This document shows positions 5,890 through 29,924 of a DNA stretch of 64,000 nt, in pieces; position 1 is the stretch's first letter, and the number at the start of each line of letters is the position of its first letter. The stretch is taken from the NCBI GenBank assembly GCA_000004985.1, contig GG738846.1; one strand, written 5' to 3'. This DNA comes from Naegleria gruberi. Its lineage: Eukaryota. The notes under the pieces were generated by a model. It did no database searches, was not told where the DNA came from, and saw nothing but the letters and a program-made list of their open reading frames with translations. The position numbers were made by a program, and so were the translations under genes.

Positions 5890-6879
5890 CTAGTACTTGG
5901 ATTTGTCGACATCATCAAAGAATGGATGTTTGAGGGCTTCCTTGGCAGAAATTCTCTTGTTTGGTTGGTATTCTAACATACGAGTGAGCAAATCAATACC
6001 ACAATCGTCCAATCTGCTACAGACAGCAGGTAAGTGATTCCCCTTCCACTTTGGGAATTTGTTATTGAAACTGGCGAAACCCTTCAAAGATGAAACACCA
6101 GGCCAAATTTCTTCATTAGGAGTACCAAGGTTTTGGAAGATCTTGAATAACATATCAATTTCAGAATCAGCTGGGAATAAGGCAGTACCATTAACCAATT
6201 CAGCAAAGATACAACCAATAGACCAGATATCAACAGGAGTAGAATACTTTTCACTTCCGAGTAAGATTTCAGGTGCTCTGTACCATAAAGTAACAACTTC
6301 GTGTGTAAGTTTACCACATGGCAATTGGAAAGCTCTGGCCAAACCAAAATCAGCCAATTTGAGCATCAAATCATTATCCTTAGTCTTTTGGACGAGAATG
6401 TTTTGTGGCTTTAAATCTCTGTGAATAATTCTAGCAGAGTGACAGAAAGCAATACCCTTAAGAGTTTGATAGAGGCAAGACTTGATCATGCTCATTGGAA
6501 TTGGTATTCTCTTCTTCTTTTCACCTTCAATTCTCTTAAATTCGTTCATGTACTTCTTCAAATCCAATTCAATAAATTCAAAGACTAAATGTAAATTATC
6601 ATCACCATGAATAACTTCGATCAAATTAACGACATTTGGATGATGCATCTCCTTCAACAAGGAAATTTCTCTGATGGAGGTACTTGGTACACCTTCATCT
6701 TCATGTTCTAAACGGATCTTCTTGATGGCTACAACATTCTTATTAGTAAGATCAATTGCTCTATATACAACACCATAGGTACCTTCACCTAATTTATCTT
6801 GTCTATCGTATCGGGCAAGACCCTTTGCTGCAGCAGAGAAGTGTTGTTGCTGTTGTTGTGGTAGGGACAAGGAAGTCAT
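5890..6879 (-). CDS. Cyclin-dependent kinase, CDK1/CDK2 (PSTAIRE-class) family; PSTAIRE variant 'PSTSIRE'
   Basis: Single exon, 329 aa. GEGTYGVVY glycine loop; '[29 protein letters not shown]' is near-identical to the CDK1 PSTAIRE helix; HRDLKPQN; DFGLAR; the segment from [10 protein letters not shown] onward. Q-rich N-terminal extension. Confidence 0.9.
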
Positions 6880-8156: not shown

Positions 8157-11100
8157 ATGTCACACACCACAACGAACGAAAATGTGATGACAGACGAAGA
8201 TCAAATTGTCAACATACACACTGTGGAAGTGGTTGATGAAGATGATAATTTATCTATAAATTCCGATACATTAAGAGCATTGGATGATGAACAAAATAAC
8301 GAAGAACAGCAGCAACAACAGCCTGCCGAATTAAATAATACACAAGAATTGTTGGATGATTTGGGAGGATTTAACGATGATGAAGATGTAAATATTGATA
8401 ATTATGAGGAAAAACCACATAGTAGAAAATACTCTCAAATTGAGGATGACGATGATGTATTGGAAAATTTGGATCTTACCGATCTTTCTCCGATTATTGA
8501 AAATCCTCTCAAGAAACAAAAATTCGATCAAATAGATGAAAATAATCGACCAGTAGAAACATTTGGATTTGTTTCTGCTAAATTAACTTCATCGAGTAAG
8601 GATGAAGAAAATATATCGAGTGAAAAACCACCTGCCACAGATGGTTTTGTGTCTGCTGCTTCAAATAGACCTTCAGAAACATTTGGATTTGTTTCAGCTT
8701 CCTCAAATAATAGACCTGCAGAGACTTTTGGATTCGTCTCTGCCAGACCACCTACAAAGTACACCTATCATCCAGAGGAGGACGATGAAAAACCAGCAGC
8801 AACTGAGGGTTTTGTTTCAGCAGCTCCATCAAAACGTCCACCAGAAACATTTGGATTTATGAAAGCAAATGGAGACAATTTTGAATCAGAAACTGAAGAA
8901 AATTATCAAATTAACAAACCAGCAGCAACAGATGGATTTGTTTCTGCCTCCACTGACAAGCCTTCAGAAACTTTTGGATTTATTTCAGCCTCTTCAAACA
9001 AACCACCTGCTACAGATGGATTTGTCACTGCAGGCAAAGATTCCAAAAAGTATACTTATAACCCTGAGGAAGACGAAAAACCACCTGCTACAGATGGTTT
9101 TGTGTCAGCTGCCTCAAATAATAGACCAGTAGAGACTTTTGGGTTTGTTTCTGCTAGACCACCAACAAAGTATACATATAACCCTGAGGAAGACGATGAA
9201 AAACCACCAGCAACTGAAGGTTTTGTTTCTGCTAAACCAAAAACTAAATTTGATTCACCAACTGAAATAAGGCCATCCGAAACATTTGGATTTGTTTCTG
9301 CCAGGCCGGCCTCCAAGTATACCTATCATCCAGAGGAGGACGATGAAAAACCAGCAGCAACTGAGGGTTTTGTTTCTGCCTCAAATAGACCTTCAGAAAC
9401 TTTTGGATTTGTTTCAGCCTCTTCAAACAAACCAGCACCAACAGATGGATTTGTATCCGCCTCGAATAGAACTAACGAAAATGAGATGGATATTTCAGAT
9501 GAAAGACCACCTGCCACAGATGGTTTTCAAAGCGCCCTAGATAGACCACCACCAACTGAAGGATTTTTGTCTGCATCTAATAGACCACCAGAGACATTTG
9601 GGTTTTTAAAGGCAAACACAAGCACTCCTGCCGAAACTGATGGATTTCAGGTTGCCAATAATCGTCCACCTGCAACAGATGGATTCGTATCGTCTAAATC
9701 GTCTAGTACTTTCAAAACTCCTTCAAAGAATAATGTAAATATTGAATTATCCACACCTAGTAATAATAGTGACATATTTAAAACACCAAGTAAGGTTGGT
9801 AGCTCACTTAATAAGAAAACACCTGCTACGAAGAGAAGTATAAAGAATCCATTTGCTTCTCTTACCACAGAGCAAGGTGACACTAAGAAGGAAACTCCTA
9901 CAAATAGAATCAATGAAACTGTAAAGAAAAAGCAAAAGAAATTTGTAACTCCAATCAAATCGAAGGAAAGTTTTGAAGAAGCTAAAAAACGTGAAAGTGA
10001 AAGGAGGTCAGCTTCCACTTCTTCTTCTTCGTCAATTAGTATCACAAAGAAAACTTCTGACACAACACCAATAACAGCACCAAGCTGGGTACCTGTAAAA
10101 CACCACAAATCTGATTCAAAGGAGGAAGTTCATGTAAAAAGAAGGATAAATACTTTGGGAATATGTGAACAGCTACCTATTGAGAAGATTAAGAGAGAGG
10201 GAGTATCCCAATATTCAATAACAATGACTAGCATTTCCGCCAAGACATTTAAATTTAATTTGAATGATTTCAAAGTATCAAATGAAATGATAGAAGCAAT
10301 AGTGAGCCTTAATGGAAACAAAAGAGTAGTGAATTTTGGAAGTGAAGAATATGAACGGTTATTAGTACATTTTGGTGCTAAAACAAGTGTTGTAAAAACT
10401 GATTGGGTTGAAAATCACTATAGGTGGATTGTTTGGAAATTGGCAAGTCTCGATAGGACATTCCCAAATGACAAGTCTTTTCCATTTTTGACTCCTGAAA
10501 AGGTTTTAGGACAACTAATTTATAGGTATAATGTTGAATTTTGTAAAGGAAAAAGATCATGTTTGAAAATGATTGCTGAAAAGGACATTCCTCCTGGTCA
10601 ATTCATGGTTCTGATGGTATCATCTTTATCAAATAACGATAACGATATGGAAGAATGTAAAACTATAGAACTTAGTGATGGTTGGTACAGTATGAAGGCA
10701 AAATTAGATGAACAACTATCCAGGTATTTGGAATGGTGCAAGATACGTATAGGTCAAAAATTGAGAATTGTAGGAGCATCTTTTGTTGAAAATTTTGAAC
10801 CTGCTCCTCCTTTGGAGTTGCCTGGAAATGCATGTTTAAAGCTGAGCATTAATGGTGTTAGAAAGGCTCACTGGGATACCACATTAGGATTCCAATACGG
10901 AAGAATGCCTTTCAAAGTTTCATTCAAATCCATTCAAAGCAATGGAGGAAATATTCCTTGTATCAGAGCCATTGTTAAAAGAGTGTATCCACAAAAGTTC
11001 TTGGAGAAAATCACTGACGAAAGTGGTACTGTCTCGACAATCATTAGAACTAAACAAGCTGAAGATTACATCTCTGCTATTAATGAGAAGGAAAGAGAAA

Positions 11101-12911
11101 AATTAATGGCTACACTTCAACCAACCTATTACGATGAAGAAAAGAAGAAAATTATTGGACCTAAGAAAAATATCACAACACCGATCAAGAGAATTTATGA
11201 GGGATCTGTTCTTTACAAGCTCTTATCAGAATGCAGAGATGAGTCATCATTTTATGCCCAATTGAATGAGACACAACACCAAAATTTAGAGAATTACCAA
11301 CGTAACATTGAGAGTGAGATTCAATCAAGAGTTTCTCAAAGATTAACAACCACTTTGGATCAACATCCAACTCTCAATAGAAATGTCTCTGCTATGGTAA
11401 CTGTTAGATTGGGTGATTGCTGTCCTTATTCGAAAAATCCTGGTGTAACGATGAACGATAAGGAAATGATTATTACGTTATGGATTGCAGATGAAGACAA
11501 TGAATCTTTTCAAGAGGGAAATATTATTGACATTTATAATAGTAGATCATCCAAGCAAAGTGGAAGTCAAGTTATGAAGTCAATTTCAGCAATTTCTCAT
11601 ACTAAAGTGGAGATTGTTAAAAATTGGAAGGACTTGACAGATGAAGAAATGAAGGTCTATAGCTATGTACCAAGAAGTTGTATCAATTTTACTCAGGTGA
11701 AAAATCCAGACTGCAGACAGCACAATAACGAATTCGATTTTGCAGGAATACTAGTTTATACAAAAGAAATCGAGCAGAGAGAAAAAGAAAGTACCCTAAA
11801 GTTACTCTACTTTGTAGATTCTACTTCTTTCAATATTTCAGAATCCTCATATTCTAAAAATCCAATAATTATGCAAGTTAGATATTATGAATCAAATAAG
11901 AAACAATTTAGATGGTTCCTAACTCCAGGAAAAGTTTATTATATGGCAAATGTTACCTATTCAGACTTTGATGAAACTAACAATAGAATCAAGTGCTTTG
12001 CCAATGAACAAACTTTCATTTCTGAAAGAGCAACCAAACAACATTTCAAGTCAGCATCCAGTGAAATTAATGCTTTCTTGAAAAACAATAGGGAAAAATG
12101 CCTTTCACTAGAAAGTGTTATCGACCAATTTTCATTTAGAGAGGAAGATTATACAACACCTCGAAAGTCAATATCAAGCAATAATGACATGGAGGATGAT
12201 TTCAGTCTTGACCAAGAAATTAATTGTAATCCAATTATTGATGGCGATCACCAAATTCAAATTACATTATTGGATGGAGGATACAATGTTATTGAGACGT
12301 ATGTATATCCAAAGGATAATAATATTAGCTACAAGAGAGCTGAGGATACATATTCTTTTTATGTAAAACTCTACATTGAAACAAAGGAAGAGTGTTATTC
12401 CATTAAATTTACAGAGGACATGTTTGACAAGCTTGCTAACTGTCTCTATTTTGAAGAGGCAAACAATGCAGGGTTTCATCAATTCAACTTGCAAGACATT
12501 TTACAGTCAGAAACCATACCAGAATGGATTAAAACTCTTGTAAGTGAGGGAAAGATCATACATGAAAATTATGAATCCAATGATTTCACTACAAGGGTTG
12601 AAGAAATTAGAATGAATTTATTCAATTCGAGGAATGTGGATACCATGACAAAATTAATCAGATCTATCATTGTTGGAACCAAATTTATTACCAATTTAGA
12701 GCAGTTAGAAAACTTTATCTATTTGGATTCAGTTCTTGTTTGCTCTCCTGAGGAATGGAATTATTTGATGCAACAATTCATCTCCACACTCAAGAATACC
12801 CTTTTCAAATTCAATATTCGTGGAAGTGATAAACAAGTTATGAACGTCACGTGTATGGTCAGAGATTTTGCATTGGACAATTTAGATCTAGAAGATATCT
12901 TATTAAATTAA
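8157..12911 (+). CDS. BRCA2: BRCA2 orthologue (homologous-recombination mediator): acidic N-terminus, about 21 tandem minimal FxxA (GFVSA) motifs, then BRCA2 helical domain and OB folds
   Basis: Single 1584-aa ORF. '[23 protein letters not shown]…[16 protein letters not shown]…' matches the human BRCA2 helical domain ([21 protein letters not shown]…PERVLLQLKYRYDTEI). '[16 protein letters not shown]…[12 protein letters not shown]' matches OB1 (LTDGWYAVKAQLD…VGQKIILHGAEL). Upstream repeated '[17 protein letters not shown]' motifs resemble the BRC core FxTASGK and the RAD51 'GFTTA' motif. Confidence 0.9.
   Translation: [1584 protein letters not shown]
8545..9715. repeat. In-frame tandem array (about 21 copies) of a 12–14-codon unit encoding '(E)TFGFVSAS…' and 'TDGFVSAS…' within BRCA2, plus four copies of 'KYTY(N/H)[11 protein letters not shown]'
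   Basis: Visible as repeated 'gaaacatttggatttgtttc(t/a)gc' and 'acagatgg(a/t)tttgt…gc' strings. It generates many spurious antisense ORFs (8528..9517). Confidence 0.85.
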
Positions 12912-13004
12912 TTAAGACCTTAAATCCAAACCTTTTTGCGTTTAACACATCCAGAAAATGATGGAATGAAATGGCGCCAAAACTAAAATAAAAAACACAA
13001 AAAA

Positions 13005-14021
13005 ATGCAAAGACTTTTTGTCCGTGTAGTTGCCGATGGTTTTCCTTCATCATCGTCATCTTATAATGATAACAATAATAATAACATTACTTTTCCATCC
13101 TCAACAACAAATCCTTCAACGATCAGTTCGTTACTTTTAGAGAGAAATCAATTTTATAGAAAGTTAGCCGGTGTAAATAGGTCCAACTCTACGTCTAAAT
13201 TGTTGGACAGAAACTTTTGCTGTATTCTTCCACATAATTTATCGCTTGGTGATGTCAAACAAACAATATGTAGACAATATCAATCGATATTTTATGATAA
13301 AGTTACGGAAGGTTTTGAATTTGACAATTCTGATGCCTTTACTCTTTCTCGTTTATATTCCGACTTGGGATTAGAGTTGGGCTTGTGGAATACACAACTT
13401 AAAGCTAGTGATATTTTCACTGATGAACAAGTAGTATTTGCCAAATTGGATTGTTCACGAAAACAAAAAATTAAACTGAAAGAAAAATATCAACAAACAG
13501 AACAATACCTCTCACCACCAGATAGTGATAAGGAACAGTCCAACACTGCTCTTTTTGAAACACCTAAAAAGAGAAAACCAACAAGTAATTTTTTAACACC
13601 TCAATCCAAGAAGAAAAAACCAATTACTCCACCAAGTATTACAAGTGGTGATGATAGTGATTCTTCTGTGAGTGATTCAGAAGATGAGGCAGGGGCTACT
13701 CGTCCAGTAACAAGTGCCACATTGAAACAAACAGCGGAGAATCCTATTGTAATTCAATCGGATGAAGAATCTGAAGAATCAGAAGAGGAAGAGGAAGAAG
13801 AAGAGACACCAGTCAAGAAACCACAACCAAAGAAGCAAGAATTAAAGCAGGAAACAAAGAAACCAGAAAAGAAACAACCAGAAAAAGAGGAATCTGAAGT
13901 TGAAGACTCTGAGGAAGAACTGAAATCAGATTCTGATAAAGATGTCATGACTCACAGATCAATACGCCAAATTCTTTGCAAATACCAAGCACTGGTTAAA
14001 GGCAAAGTTTGCTGGTGGTAA
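13005..14021 (+). CDS. Acidic Ser/Glu-rich (CK2-site-rich) then Lys-rich nuclear/nucleolar-like protein, unknown function; the C-terminus probably continues in the +1 frame to 14129
   Basis: 338-aa ORF. N-terminal globular region, long 'SDSEDE…EESEESEEEEEE' tract, K-rich tail. The +1 frame after 13944 is open to 14129 and encodes a non-low-complexity tail ('KHWLKAKFAGGKFKTESDLEDMKKAFSQLTKSHQTELLDLMATMKGQ'). Confidence 0.55.
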   Translation: MQRLFVRVVADGFPSSSSSYNDNNNNNITFPSSTTNPSTISSLLLERNQFYRKLAGVNRSNSTSKLLDRNFCCILPHNLSLGDVKQTICRQYQSIFYDKVTEGFEFDNSDAFTLSRLYSDLGLELGLWNTQLKASDIFTDEQVVFAKLDCSRKQKIKLKEKYQQTEQYLSPPDSDKEQSNTALFETPKKRKPTSNFLTPQSKKKKPITPPSITSGDDSDSSVSDSEDEAGATRPVTSATLKQTAENPIVIQSDEESEESEEEEEEEETPVKKPQPKKQELKQETKKPEKKQPEKEESEVEDSEEELKSDSDKDVMTHRSIRQILCKYQALVKGKVCWW

Positions 14022-19121: not shown

Positions 19122-20840
19122 TCAACGATGGATTTCTTTACAGCTCCAGGTTAGTTTGCTTTCGCCTAAAATTGAAAGTTTTGGAAGAAATTCACCAAGG
19201 TTTGGACAAGAAGATTTCAATCTCTCCTTTTCTGTGTTGTTAAATTGATTAACTTGATGCTCGAAACGTTTAACAATTCTAGGAAACTTTTCACTTAAAT
19301 AAATTAACCATCTATGGAAATACATATAACCATACAATGCCTTAATTGAGGCATGAGTATTACCCTTCATGATTTCAACGACCATAGAATTCATCAGCTT
19401 ACACATGAGATCTGCATAAACGACCCAATTATCAAAATTTGGTTTCTCACAATGATTGTAAACTGTTGGATGAGAATTGTAAATTTCTTGAATTGACTTT
19501 TTCAATCTCTCAAAATTTCCATGTTTTCTATTAATGTAAATTGGAATCCAATGTGTGAATGTTGATCCCCAAACACTCTTTCTGACTCTCTCTTCATAAA
19601 ATGACTTTCTGGAGAGGAGATCGAGTGGTGAGGAGATGGAGGCAACTGTGCCATCTTTCTTCGTTTCGAATGAGAGACCAATACCAAGTATATCCTCCTT
19701 GAAACTTTCTTTCGAATGGTAACAAATTAATTCTCGTGCAGTGGAGAGAAGTTTGTACTCACACAATTCGAGGAGATGTTTGCTTGATTTTTCGACTTTC
19801 TTCAAATCAGAGTGAGTTAAATAGGTGAGAATGTGCAGGAGAATTTCATTTGGAATGTCATTGAATGAAGTGTTTGGAGCTTGAACTCCCTTTTCAACTG
19901 TGCCAACGTTGGTAGTTACATCAACACCAGTATCTTCTGTGAAGATAGAATTGACTAGCTCAGGTGCTGTAGAAGTGGAAGTAGTTACTGGAAGAGGTGT
20001 TGTTGCAGATTCATTTGTAAATTTAACGAAACCCATTTGATTTAGAATTTTGAGGAGGTAATTTTGAATATGTGAAATAATGGATACACTGTATGATAAC
20101 GGAGGTTCAACAGGAGTAGCTAATTCTTCCTTGATTTCTTCCTTTGGTTTAGTTTTCTTTCCAATATCTTCTTGTTCCATTGTTTCAACCTTGACAACTG
20201 ATTTCTTTTTCTTATTCTTCTTTGGCTTGCTAACTAGAGTACTAACTAATTCTTTCTCCTTCTTTGGAACAATAGCTTTCTTAACCACAATTGGTTTTGG
20301 CTCATATTTGGAAGTCAATATTTCATTAACATTCCAATGAGGAGCACACGGATAAACAACGCCATTGGAAGGATCGTGTCCAGTTTCATCAAACTTGAAT
20401 GCTCTGGAAAGCTCAATATCAGCTTGAATGAATCCAGCTTGTCTTTCTTCTTCCTCCAAGAGAAAAGATTGCAATTGAAGCAACACAGACAAACATGAAT
20501 AGCTTGTACTCCATCCCATGTAAGGAACTTGAGAAAAGTGATTACTCTCCAAAATATCCAAACAAATCCAACTTCCAAATACATGTGAGTGATGCAATCT
20601 GGTGAGACAATTAATAGTTGGTGGCTTATTTGGATAATCGAGTGGAAAATCAATTTCCAACAAGAGAATAATTCCACGATACTTGGAAGTTTTTGGAGCT
20701 AGCACAGTTGCGTACCACTTGAATAAATCTCCCTTGAATGGTTCTGCATAGACAGTTTCTAATGGATTCATTTGAATTTCTTTCAAATCTTTCATTAATC
20801 TTTTAAGAACTCGATCTTGCTTGTTGTTGTTTGATAACAT
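19122..20840 (-). CDS. Fusion protein: N-terminal ubiquitin-conjugating (UBC/E2) fold with non-canonical HPN motif, central F-box, C-terminal domain of unknown function
   Basis: 572 aa, single exon. 'PPTINCLTRLHHSHVFGSWICLDILE' aligns to the E2 active-site region (…YHPNINSNGSICLDIL…); Cys is retained and HPN is replaced by HHS. 'IPNEILLHILTYLTHSDLKKV' is F-box-like. Confidence 0.7.
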   Translation of the reverse strand: MLSNNNKQDRVLKRLMKDLKEIQMNPLETVYAEPFKGDLFKWYATVLAPKTSKYRGIILLLEIDFPLDYPNKPPTINCLTRLHHSHVFGSWICLDILESNHFSQVPYMGWSTSYSCLSVLLQLQSFLLEEEERQAGFIQADIELSRAFKFDETGHDPSNGVVYPCAPHWNVNEILTSKYEPKPIVVKKAIVPKKEKELVSTLVSKPKKNKKKKSVVKVETMEQEDIGKKTKPKEEIKEELATPVEPPLSYSVSIISHIQNYLLKILNQMGFVKFTNESATTPLPVTTSTSTAPELVNSIFTEDTGVDVTTNVGTVEKGVQAPNTSFNDIPNEILLHILTYLTHSDLKKVEKSSKHLLELCEYKLLSTARELICYHSKESFKEDILGIGLSFETKKDGTVASISSPLDLLSRKSFYEERVRKSVWGSTFTHWIPIYINRKHGNFERLKKSIQEIYNSHPTVYNHCEKPNFDNWVVYADLMCKLMNSMVVEIMKGNTHASIKALYGYMYFHRWLIYLSEKFPRIVKRFEHQVNQFNNTEKERLKSSCPNLGEFLPKLSILGESKLTWSCKEIHR

Positions 20841-26355: not shown

Positions 26356-29300
26356 TTGAGTGGAACTACCACTAGTTTAAGACTTGCATGCTACAATGTT
26401 AACGGTCTATACAAGCATGCAGTCCATAAATCTGTAACTCAAGAATTGAAATCTATGTGTTTAACACATGGAGTTCATATGATGAGTATTACAGAAACAC
26501 ACGTTAACACTACTGAATTAGAAATTAAAGTTAGAAATTCTGGTTCAGGTTATTTATTAATTAACTCCCTTATGGGTCGATCTAAAGGCTGTAGTTATGC
26601 ACTTTTTAAATAATCATAGAAAGCGTAACATTACCAATAATAATTTAGTACCTGGAATCTTACAATGGACAAGATTTGAAAGCAGGGGAATTCCAATTAA
26701 TTTATTTACTATTTATTTAAGTGGCAGATCAGATGATTATGAAAATGATCAAGAAGCCATTAACAGTTTTATCAATGCTGTTTTAACATGTAAAGATGAA
26801 CATATTATTTTAAGTGGGGATCTTAATATTGATACTCAAAACCCCACTACTACAAGAGAAAAGGATTGGATTTGGATTCTTGAAATGTTAAAATTGACAG
26901 AATTCAAAACACCAAATTATACATGGATTAGACGAAGTCAGGGAACTTTAAATAGATCTAGACCTGACCATATCTTTGTCTCAAAGAATATTAGAGTGGT
27001 AAAGGAAGTAATTATGACACCTTTGACCACTAATGATCATGTCCCTTTTTATTTAGATTTAGAATCTAATCTTACTTGGAGAACTTACTTTAGTAAGAAT
27101 AAGAGGAAAAGAATGTACGAAGCAATTAATAAGTGTAAAATTGACAATTTTCAAGAGCTGAATCAAGCAATTGAGGCTCAAATAATTAAATATGGATCCA
27201 AAGTAGATAGATTAGGAGTTGGAAGAATTTCTACAGCATTTAAAGAAGAAATTCAAGATTTAGAGGATGAAATATTATCTAAAATTAATAACCCTAATAT
27301 TCCTCAATCAGAAATACAAGAACTACAAACACTCCTAAAAGAAACACATATTAATAATGCAAAAGAAATTAAGGAAAAACTTATAACTCTTCATCGAGAA
27401 TGTATCAATTTGATAAAATGATACACTCTAACCAAATTATGTGGAAAGACCTTAACTTTGAAGAAGAAGAAATAGTGGATTACTTTACAAACAAATTTAC
27501 CTCCACTAATCAACAACCAACATTCACACCAAGTAATTCAACTATCAAAGAAGGTCCAGATTGGAGCAATTCGATTCATATTAAAGAGCTACAAGATGCT
27601 CTCAAACGAATGAAATCAAACACTTCTGGGCCTGATCTAATCTCACTCGATTTAATTAAACATCTTACAGAAGCCAATCAAGGAATCCTCTTAGAAGAAT
27701 ATAATAGATGTTTAAGAGATGGTGATATTCCACAAAATTGGAAACAAGGATGGGTAAAACTCATTCCTAAAAGAGAAATTAATACCTTAAGTGATATTCG
27801 CCCAATTACTATTTTACCAATATTTTACAGAATATTATTTAATATTATAGCATTTAGATTGAGATCTTGGGCATCAACTCATATTAATGTTAGACAACAA
27901 GCATTTATTACAGACAGAAATACTTTGAATCATGGTGTATTACTCTCTGCCTTAGCAATGAAAACAAGGAAAAGGACTTTTATTTTAGTGAATTTAGATA
28001 TAGAAGGGGCGTATGATGCAGTCGAATTACCTGTCATCAAAATGGCCCTAGACCACTGTAAATACCCTTCAGAACTTACTCAATTCATTTTAAATGCTTA
28101 TGCTAACCATGAACTTCAATTAGAAATTGATAATCATCTCTCTGATAAATTTAAGAAAACAAGAGGAATACCACAAGGCTGTCCACTGGCCCCTCTTATA
28201 TACGATTGTATTACCCAATTAATAATTGACAAAGCAATTGATAAGTGGAAGATACCAATCAAACCAGGCAAACTATGTGCAAATGATATTGCACTCTGCT
28301 GTTTTGCTGATGATATGAATGTTGTATGTGACAGATATTCCAAGTATAATGACTAGACAATATTCATGATTGGTTACATCAATTATTATTTAAATTGAAT
28401 GCTAAGAAATCAGTAGCAACTCTATTACCTAAAAAGAGCACAGTCTCACCTAAAATCAAAGGTACTCCAGTACCTAAACAGAAAAACCTTAGAGTACTTG
28501 GCCATTACCCTTGGGATGATACTTTGGTAATACAAGACATCCAATCCAAGATAGACAAATTCTCAAAATCATTAAGATTTTTACCATTATTCAAATTACA
28601 GCCAACAAACCTTAAAATAATTATGCATGCTAAAGCAATCAGCCTATTCACTCACCTCTCAAAAATCAATATAATCCCTTTAAAGAAAGCTCAGGAAATA
28701 GATCGTGCAATTAGAGGTGCAATCAGACGTAAATTATTAATGGACAGAGCAACTCCAACAAGTTTCTTTCACCTGCCATTAGAAGAAGGTGGATTAGGAT
28801 TACCATCAATTGAGGAATTCTCTGAAAGAATGAATTTAAGAACTATGAATTTAATCGCCAATAATAAGAATAAGTTAATAAGAAAAGCTTTCAAATATGG
28901 TATCAAACATTGTGAGGAAACTAAAGATAATATTTATGCTAAATGGTTATCTGTACTTAAAGAATATAATCTCACATTTGTGCAGAATGATACGAAATTT
29001 AGAATAGCCAAAATCAAAACAGGGAATAGTTTCGATATCCATACAGATGGATCTAGAATTAATCAAAAGACAGGAATGGGTATTAATATTTATGATACCT
29101 CAAATAGATCAGTTCCTTGTAAAACTTTATCCCTCAGAATCAATAATCATTATTCAAATAATATAGCCGAAATATGCTCCATAATAACTTCTATTAATGT
29201 AATCCCACGAAACTCTAAAGTTACCATTCATACAGATAGTGAAGTTGCAATAGAAGTTCTCAAAGATAGATACAAAGGAGATTTTCTAACATTAAAAGAA

Positions 29301-29924
29301 GCCTTCTTTAGAACAACCAAAAATAGAAAAATAGAATATGAAATTAAGAAAGTTGAAGCACACAAAGATAGCGAGAATATCAAGGTTGATTTAATAGCAA
29401 AGAATGCTACAACCAGAGAGGATATTTTTGATATTCGTAATTTACTCAAGAATCAACACCTCCTTGTTAAGGATGGTGTTGTCGTCTTCAATCATAAGAA
29501 GATGACCATAACAAGACATTTAAGTGTAAGACATAATAAGATGAATGAAAACCCTAACTTTATTCTAAACCAAAGTTGGGATTCTCTTAATGTGCAATAC
29601 CTTAAAACTCGTCTTACTCCTAAAACTAAATACTTTATATGGAGAAATTCCATCAATGCCCATATCAATTTTGGTAAGGGTAAAAGTTTCTGTTACGATT
29701 GTGGTACAGAATCTGATTTATTCCATTACATTCATGAGTGCCCTGGCTTGGATAGTGCCAGGTATTTTTGTAAATCAAAGATATCTGATATTCTTGAAGG
29801 GAGAGAGTGCTTACTTTCTCATTTTCAATTCAAACCAGAAAAGCACCACCATGCATTACATTTCCATCATAACGGAATCACCTCTTTGGAAGATGGATAC
29901 ATGCAATTCCATAAAGATACATAA
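26356..29924 (+). mobile_element. Non-LTR (LINE) retrotransposon ORF2, degenerate: APE endonuclease, reverse transcriptase, RNase H, C-terminal CCHC zinc knuckle; broken into 4 ORFs by at least 3 frameshifts
   Basis: 'LACYNVNGL…' and 'TNDHVPFYLDLE' are APE N- and C-terminal motifs. 'SDIRPITILPIFYRIL…IPQGCPLAPLIYD…CFADDMNVVC' are RT motifs including YxDD→FADD. 'FDIHTDGSRIN…EICSII…KVEAHKD' is RNase H. 'CYDCGTESDLFHYIHECPG' is the zinc knuckle. Frames change at about 26600, about 27410 and about 28360. Confidence 0.85.

Follow-up and report, generated by a model that had tools for sequence, protein, structure and literature searches.

The self-oligomerisation motif of human RAD51 is 85-GFTTA-89. 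The A-motif (FxxA) repeats of BRCA2 are well known: in its canonical form the BRC repeat unites an FxxA half (module 1) with a hairpin return strand, a helix and an LFDE-like tetrad (module 2). LFDE-independent binding has a precedent too, as BRC1 of Leishmania infantum binds RAD51 at 0.17-0.65 uM without making use of its LFDE-equivalent, by means of an extended hairpin, and Pantelejevs and Hyvonen (2022) proposed that FxxA is the ancestral core and that the additions are lineage-specific (PMC9162458). Trypanosoma brucei was predicted to carry 15 BRC repeats in tandem units of 44 amino acids (aa); sister species lack this array, and strains vary from 5 to 12 copies (Hartley and McCulloch, 2008; PMC2408642). 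The FxxP "P-motifs" bind a site other than that of FxxA and stabilise filaments (Miron et al., 2024); the human PhePP motif reads RPTKVFVPPFKTKSHF, and FIGNL1 has an A-motif with an FxxP P-motif nearby (PMC11229353). Here we describe the BRCA2 gene of the heterolobosean Naegleria gruberi. The window, i.e., the whole stretch of DNA analysed, comprises 64,000 nucleotides (nt) of contig GG738846.1 (assembly GCA_000004985.1), and all positions refer to it. The intron-free open reading frame (ORF) at 8157-12911 (+) runs from ATG to TAA and encodes a BRCA2 of 1584 aa. Between its acidic N-terminus and its DNA-binding domain, the same placement as in other BRCA2s, lies an array of 21 short units which are best described as module 1 of the BRC repeat alone.

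The orthology of the protein is solid, because Pfam recognises the BRCA2 helical and OB1 domains in it and, just at its threshold, a probable OB3 (Table 1), and aa 681-1201 align with the DNA-binding-domain structures of rat and mouse BRCA2 (1iyj_B, 1miu_A) at E ~3e-57. A first, sequence-only reading of this DNA had already claimed a BRCA2 orthologue, and the Pfam domains and the Protein Data Bank (PDB) matches bear it out. OB2 and Tower have no Pfam match in the N. gruberi protein, although the PDB alignment still spans the OB2 region.

The array contains exactly 21 G-F-x-x-A/S modules, which lie between aa 137 and aa 514. The longer pattern P-x-x-T-x-G-F-x-x-[AS] fits every one of them and has no other occurrence in the six-frame translation of the window, and 5000 shuffles of the array residues yielded a mean of 0.43 GFxx[AS] copies and never more than 4, as opposed to the 21 observed. 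The units fall into two sharply distinct types, which differ at positions -4 and -2 from the Phe: type A, (R/K)PxETFGF, with nine members, and type B, (K/R)PxxT[D/E]GF, with twelve. Along the array they follow one another as ABAABABABBABABABBBABB, for the most part in alternation. From one unit start to the next the distance is either 13-15 aa (11 intervals) or 23-27 aa (9 intervals), a bimodal spacing, and four of the long intervals are filled by KYTY[NH]PEED(D)EKP linkers. Position +2 is Ser in 17 units, Lys in two, and Thr and Val in one each. Twenty units read F..A and only unit 21 reads F..S, with Ser at the Ala position as in the FxxS of the low-affinity human BRC5 (PMC9162458). Thus the about 21 modules, two flavours and four linkers reported from the sequence alone were correct, with the count now exact and the alternation a tendency. 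The "GFVSA" unit named there was right as a core, but the motif is longer, with P(-6), T(-3), G(-1), F(0) and A(+3) conserved. The region is rich in S, P, A, E and T, and it is predicted to be disordered: in a charge-hydropathy analysis it falls on the disordered side and the DNA-binding domain on the folded side. Several ORFs of 84-87 aa lie off-frame or antisense to the array (8602-9540, both strands), among them an antisense ORF at 9056-9316 (-) that encodes "KPSVAGGFSSSS" repeats; we rejected these ORFs as genes and regard them as by-products of the repeated codon pattern.

The relation of the units to canonical BRC repeats was approached with the Pfam BRC model and with profile-profile alignment. 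At E<=10 the model PF00634 (curated threshold 20.3 bits) had no match in the whole N. gruberi protein, in isolated units or in super-units (unit + unit + linker + unit), and none in the BRCA2 orthologues of Naegleria fowleri or Willaertia, while the same runs returned 8 repeats in firefly BRCA2 and 10 in frog BRCA2 as controls. We then used hhalign to set a profile of the 21 units against 20 canonical BRC repeats of the firefly, fish and frog proteins. Columns 2-16 aligned to columns 2-16, in register, with Prob 88.6 and P 2.7e-6, and the match runs from the Pro-rich prefix through G-F-x-[S/T]-A to one or two residues beyond. The score of 21.3 exceeds that of decoys with only G-F-x-x-A fixed (13.6 +/- 1.7, maximum 19.1 of 40) and that of decoys with permuted BRC flank columns (15.5 +/- 1.3, maximum 18.5); therefore the similarity beyond the FxxA tetrad is moderate but real. 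The string "FGFVSASGK" itself is present in genuine firefly BRC repeats.

The second half of the repeat was sought as well. The hairpin return strand (S-G-K-x-V-x-[VI]) was not found, the next unit beginning 5-9 residues past the Ala and a Pro standing at about +9. Neither Pfam nor profile-profile alignment detected a helix with an LFDE-like tetrad about 21 residues after the Phe, and the 13-27 aa spacing leaves no room for one. With B-A pairs, with type A plus the KYTY linker and with Willaertia units plus "FLxxFIxD", hhalign never extended past the FxxA half, so that an equivalence of the KYTY linkers or the Willaertia "FLxxFIxD" segments to module 2 is unsupported. The LFDE module, which the sequence-only reading had called not apparent, was thus not found by either method. 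That reading had also allowed that a hidden Markov model (HMM) search might reveal ordinary full BRC repeats, and this was not the outcome.

One would argue that the units are nevertheless ordinary BRC repeats of ~35 aa whose borders were wrongly drawn, since canonical BRC repeats vary enough to include the GF[V/I]SAS core. However, in 11 of 20 cases a unit starts only 13-15 aa after the start of the one before it, which makes a 35-aa repeat physically impossible and refutes full-length BRC repeats in the array; the Pfam model fails here and succeeds on its controls, and the alignments to BRC end at column 13-18 of 39. We regard the probability of such mis-delimitation as negligible. A different objection is that the likeness to FxxA is coincidental and that the array does not bind recombinases, being instead a low-complexity region for protein binding, either cohesive and FG-nucleoporin-like or of some other kind, with a role, for example, in nuclear import, condensate formation or the binding of another partner. 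The F-G-F of the type-A units, the disorder and the abundance of S, P, T and E, as well as the missing PF00634 match, would fit this view. Against it stand the strict conservation of Ala +3, Ser/Thr +2, Gly -1 and the Pro-rich prefix, as in BRC module 1, and the highly charged spacers, which are unlike FG domains; we consider it very improbable. By the features that define the two classes, the units carry the G-F-x-[T/S]-A core of module 1, and 20 of the 21 have the F at position 1 and the A, never P, at position 4 of an A-motif (PMC11229353), unit 21 having Ser. A half-BRC identity is what these comparisons point to.

The units have been maintained for a long time. Tandem Repeats Finder reported a single array only, with 2.1 copies and 78% matches, and the families found by repeat search share 60-90% identity. 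The 21 unit cores of 33 nt are on average 68% identical (maximum 94%, minimum 48%) with no identical pair, adjacent units share 66% of nucleotides versus 72% for alternate units, and the same amino acid in two units is encoded by the same codon in only 52% of pairs. For the most similar pair of super-units (8679-8819 and 9090-9230, 47 codons) the synonymous divergence (dS) is 0.68 and the non-synonymous divergence (dN) 0.058, hence a dN/dS of 0.09; the remaining pairs have dS of 0.98-1.15 and dN/dS of 0.24. Such near-saturated dS and low dN/dS indicate that the units are old duplicates, each under purifying selection. The near-identity of neighbouring DNA units claimed in the sequence-only reading is thus not there, and the recent expansion or concerted evolution deduced from it is contradicted by these values and by the occurrence of the array in three species. 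Copy-number polymorphism also appears less likely than had been supposed, since DNA units as diverged as these do not favour slippage.

An exhaustive HMMER scan of 1.84 billion representative proteins yielded 1736 relatives, of which only two are close: P0002, in a 90% cluster with N. fowleri XP_044562562, and P0003 from Willaertia magna. N. fowleri has 13 units, all of type A, at spacings of 14-34 aa, and Willaertia magna has 11 strict units and one degenerate unit (8 A, 3 B) at 31-105 aa; the array of N. gruberi (21 units; 9 A, 12 B; 13-27 aa) is the densest of the three. The 42 units of the three species never vary at T(-3), G(-1) and F(0) and agree to at least 90% at P(-6) and A(+3), whereas the spacers are unrelated. 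This is how short linear motifs within disordered segments classically behave. The recurrence of the motif in N. fowleri and Willaertia magna with free spacers indicates that the array predates the Naegleria/Willaertia split and is ancestral to the clade; type B was probably ancestral as well and then lost in N. fowleri. In Willaertia P0003 an amphipathic "FLxxF[IM]x[DE]" segment occurs five times (aa 297, 390, 544, 820 and 917) behind some FxxA units, at variable distance from them, and is absent from both Naegleria proteins. This segment could be a lineage-specific second RAD51 contact, although the profile alignment to BRC module 2 does not support it. Several Willaertia type-A units also have an FKKP (an FxxP motif) at about +9.

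Among 154 retrieved BRCA2 homologues expanded BRC arrays are not unique to Naegleria, and nearly all homologues surveyed retain the helical second half. Near-perfect 33-aa tandem arrays of canonical repeats were seen in Owenia fusiformis (P0029, 37 repeats) and Macrosteles quadrilineatus (P0102, about 22 repeats), and both counts exceed the array of T. brucei, which is usually quoted as the extreme. The other short-unit array without LFDE in this sample belongs to the BRCA2 of "Eukaryota sp. GEM-RC1" (KAL0230948.1, P0104), where aa 250-720 comprise 22 units of 21 aa, TKPPETTGFLTARGSTVANVD; the copies are nearly identical and hence apparently recently expanded. PF00634 misses this array too. 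Its unit KPPETTGFLTARGSTV aligns to canonical BRC repeats with Prob 93.6 and to the heterolobosean units with Prob 93.2, by which it bridges canonical BRC and the Naegleria units.

The predominant alternation of unit types would fit a variant of the half-BRC reading, nested within it, in which type B together with the following type A (~28 aa), or type A together with a KYTYxPEEDDE linker, wraps one RAD51. ETFGF or YxYxPEEDDE would then take the role of LFDE at the second site, and the effective copies would number ~9-12, not 21. Besides the alternation, the super-units were duplicated as blocks, the four KYTY linkers are kept in protein sequence with synonymous DNA differences only, and their aromatic and then acidic residues loosely recall the hydrophobic-hydrophobic-acidic order of LFDE. 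However, this pairing is not conserved, because N. fowleri has 13 units of type A with neither type B nor the KYTY linker, and the Willaertia spacers extend to 31-105 aa; the linker is absent from the Willaertia protein too. Additionally, hhalign of the B-A or A-linker segments stops at the FxxA half. Thus we find the bipartite unit unlikely. The two types could also reflect specialisation, with ETFGF, for example, preferring RAD51 and T[D/E]GF preferring the meiotic DMC1, so that the array would load both together. This agrees with the sharp separation of the classes at -4 and -2, with the presence of both in Willaertia and with the binding of both RAD51 and DMC1, at differing affinities, by vertebrate BRC A-motifs (PMC11229353). 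As this division of labour is pure inference and N. fowleri retains type A only, we hold it to be quite improbable.

Downstream of the half-BRC array the protein continues with FxxP-type motifs (Table 1), the last of which, KKFVTPIKSKESF, stands 157 aa upstream of the NHYRWIVWK signature. A motif of the form F-x-[PT]-P-[FILMV]-[KR], including FVTPFK variants, was found 120-220 aa upstream of that signature in 43 of 122 BRCA2 homologues. In position and in sequence KKFVTPIKSKESF resembles the vertebrate PhePP motif, which addresses the P-site of DMC1/RAD51, and we call it PhePP-like. Heterolobosean BRCA2 therewith appears to hold the full logic of BRCA2, namely A-motifs, P-motifs and a single-stranded DNA (ssDNA)-binding domain, with only the A-motif part miniaturised.

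Taken as a half-BRC string, the array is likely to be the region of BRCA2 that binds the A-site of RAD51/DMC1, and it probably still recruits RAD51. Each FxxA unit would mimic the RAD51 oligomerisation motif and plug the FxxA pocket in the ATPase core of RAD51 and probably of DMC1. Lacking the return strand of the hairpin as well as the helix/LFDE module, a single unit may be expected to bind weakly, and the array would therefore act by multivalency, i.e., avidity. The high-copy, low-affinity, FxxA-only loading of RAD51 put forward in the sequence-only reading is plausible. Monomeric RAD51, possibly also DMC1, would be tethered at high local concentration beside the ssDNA-binding OB folds and handed to ssDNA for filament nucleation. 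The units stand in part only 13-15 aa apart, so not all sites are likely to be filled at once. The downstream FxxP motifs (the two FKTPSK and KKFVTPIKSK) would attach to the P-site, a separate one, and stabilise the filament as it forms, which was also proposed for vertebrate PhePP and TR2.

Several points weigh against this assignment. FxxA is essential, yet insufficient for high-affinity binding in humans (PMC9162458; PMC2800230), and the 13-15 aa spacing is tighter than in any characterised BRC array. The similarity of the unit profile to BRC rests on ~15 columns with an excess over decoys that is only moderate, and the P-values are inflated because all compared alignments were anchored on the F..A regular expression. 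A PDB search with an 18-column unit profile returned only chance matches (a choline phosphotransferase at E 0.095, another at E 2.2). A bolder possibility, which we find rather doubtful, is that the dense half-BRC string is a distinct mode of RAD51 delivery, a low-affinity, high-valency "conveyor" or template in place of separate high-affinity clamps, the N. gruberi units at 13-15 aa lying too close together for each to hold a RAD51 core of its own. The flavours could partition RAD51 and DMC1, and the lineage-specific linkers could stand in for the second contact or mimic DNA. If true, this would be a natural minimal system in which FxxA multivalency alone replaces the LFDE module.

In our literature search no publication on BRC-type motifs of Naegleria or another heterolobosean turned up, nor any description of the GEM-RC1 array. 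A 2026 review lists a BRCA2 homologue in N. fowleri and, because of its ~27% identity to the human protein, urges caution about its function without experimental support; Naegleria RAD51 is ~62% identical to the human one (PMC13315211). The three heterolobosean BRCA2s amount to a natural experiment on the minimal BRC repeat, with the FxxA half only, in 11-21 copies, under strong purifying selection. The array speaks for the proposed role of FxxA as the ancestral core of RAD51 binding, to which single lineages added hairpin, helix and LFDE for affinity (PMC9162458). Counts of BRC repeats based on HMMs miss such arrays, as PF00634 fails on Naegleria, Willaertia and GEM-RC1; therefore protist BRCA2s regarded as "BRC-less" need re-inspection with a half-BRC profile. 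The gene also offers a compact, intron-free construct for the study of avidity versus affinity in RAD51 loading, and it gives work on homologous recombination in Naegleria a concrete starting point.

The publicly available protein probably needs a correction. The product of the 8157-12911 ORF is, over 92% of its length, 100% identical to the N. gruberi predicted protein P0001 (NCBI gene model, 1792 aa), but the latter lacks the final ~120 residues of that ORF and is spliced onto the ORF at 13005-14021, which encodes an acidic Ser/Glu/Lys-rich protein; the anomaly spans 12700-14021. The model is probably a mis-fusion, because it is the uninterrupted ORF, with its end at 12911, to which the C-termini of N. 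fowleri and Willaertia align. At the other end, the acidic N-terminus (aa 1-128, 8157-8540) includes a short block, NNTQELLDDLGG, with the counterparts NNTQELLDGL in N. fowleri and NETQSLLDNI in Willaertia. By analogy with the PALB2-binding N-terminus of vertebrate BRCA2, this block could be a partner-binding motif.

Table 1. Features of the N. gruberi BRCA2 gene in the window
Feature	Position	Strand	Type or sequence	Remarks
Array of 21 putative half-BRC units	8547-9695	+	A-motif (FxxA)	aa 131-514; motif positions, profile alignment
Unit 1	8547-8579	+	A, RPVETFGFVSA	
Unit 2	8625-8657	+	B, KPPATDGFVSA	
Unit 3	8667-8699	+	A, RPSETFGFVSA	
Unit 4	8712-8744	+	A, RPAETFGFVSA	
Unit 5	8790-8822	+	B, KPAATEGFVSA	
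Unit 6	8835-8867	+	A, RPPETFGFMKA	
Unit 7	8916-8948	+	B, KPAATDGFVSA	
Unit 8	8958-8990	+	A, KPSETFGFISA	
Unit 9	9000-9032	+	B, KPPATDGFVTA	
Unit 10	9078-9110	+	B, KPPATDGFVSA	
Unit 11	9123-9155	+	A, RPVETFGFVSA	
Unit 12	9201-9233	+	B, KPPATEGFVSA	
Unit 13	9270-9302	+	A, RPSETFGFVSA	
Unit 14	9348-9380	+	B, KPAATEGFVSA	
Unit 15	9387-9419	+	A, RPSETFGFVSA	
Unit 16	9429-9461	+	B, KPAPTDGFVSA	
Unit 17	9504-9536	+	B, RPPATDGFQSA	
Unit 18	9543-9575	+	B, RPPPTEGFLSA	
Unit 19	9582-9614	+	A, RPPETFGFLKA	
Unit 20	9624-9656	+	B, TPAETDGFQVA	
Unit 21	9663-9695	+	B, RPPATDGFVSS	
Acidic linker 1	8757-8795	+	KYTYHPEEDDEKP	
Acidic linker 2	9048-9083	+	KYTYNPEEDEKP	
Acidic linker 3	9168-9206	+	KYTYNPEEDDEKP	
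Acidic linker 4	9315-9353	+	KYTYHPEEDDEKP	
Super-unit (unit + unit + linker + unit)	8679-8821, 9090-9232, 9237-9379	+		Repeat search; 85% and 72% identity
FxxP-type motif	9708-9728	+	TFKTPSK	Directly after unit 21; PFKTPSK in N. fowleri, FKTP in Willaertia
Second FxxP-type motif	9774-9794	+	IFKTPSK	
PhePP-like P-motif	9927-9974	+	KKQKKFVTPIKSKESF	aa 591-606; core KKFVTPIKSKESF, F596; kept in 3/3 heterolobosean proteins
BRCA2 helical domain	10125-10541	+	PF09169	aa 657-795; E 2.6e-23, 83 bits vs cut-off 25
BRCA2 OB1	10557-10895	+	PF09103	aa 801-913; E 1.3e-34
BRCA2 OB3	11673-12113	+	PF09104	aa 1173-1319; 24.5 bits vs cut-off 24, barely above threshold

Neither RAD51 nor other recombination genes were found among the neighbouring ORFs scanned, and genomic context is uninformative in this eukaryote. 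Upstream of BRCA2, on the opposite strand, a CDK-like protein kinase of 329 aa with a poly-Q N-terminus is encoded at 5890-6879 (-) (Pkinase, E 3e-72). The 572-aa ORF at 19122-20840 (-) unites a UQ_con (ubiquitin-conjugating) with an F-box-like domain, which is an uncommon architecture. Three consecutive ORFs at 26597-29924 (+) with endonuclease-reverse transcriptase, RVT_1 and RNase H domains look like a non-LTR (long terminal repeat) retrotransposon, possibly a frameshifted one.

A close known relative of the array is the canonical BRC repeat (PF00634, as in human BRC4-RAD51), with which the Naegleria units share the protein, the place within it, the G-F-x-[S/T]-A-(S) core and the Pro-rich prefix. 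In contrast to it they lack the SGKxVxV return strand, the alpha-helix and any LFDE-like module, and they follow each other at 13-27 aa instead of ~35 or more. L. infantum BRC1 likewise belongs to a discoban BRCA2 and binds RAD51 independently of LFDE (PMC9162458). However, this repeat of ~30 aa, of which there are 2 copies, retains the TASGK turn together with an extended beta-hairpin (Thr -2, Val -4) and a short helix that forms an Arg salt bridge, whereas Naegleria has 21 units with Thr at -3 and without the return strand.

The comparison with T. brucei, which the sequence-only reading had drawn, holds for the high copy number of tandem RAD51-binding units in a discoban BRCA2, and this is the sole likeness. 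The expansion in T. brucei is recent, species-specific and copy-number polymorphic (PMC2408642), while the Naegleria units are of half the length, 68% identical in nucleotides, with dS of 0.68-1.15, and common to three heterolobosean species; recent, species-restricted, near-identical repeats are not what we find. The analogy is therefore superficial, given that the Naegleria duplicates are old and shared with N. fowleri and Willaertia magna. The GEM-RC1 BRCA2 resembles that of Naegleria in its 22 tandem short units, the KPPET-x-GF-x-x-A prefix and core, and neither helix nor LFDE. Its 21-aa units differ in keeping the TARGSTV hairpin return strand, as in canonical BRC, and in being nearly identical copies; moreover, GEM-RC1 is an unclassified eukaryote whose DNA-binding domain is not specially close to that of Naegleria (rank ~100).

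Outside BRCA2, the G-F-x-[S/T]-A of the RAD51 self-oligomerisation motif is the same pocket-filling motif as in the Naegleria units. The A- and P-motif of FIGNL1 resemble unit 21 followed by FKTPSK in Naegleria and GFVSAKSSSFKKP in Willaertia. Yet RAD51 and FIGNL1 have single A-motifs, whereas Naegleria BRCA2 has a 21-copy array of them.

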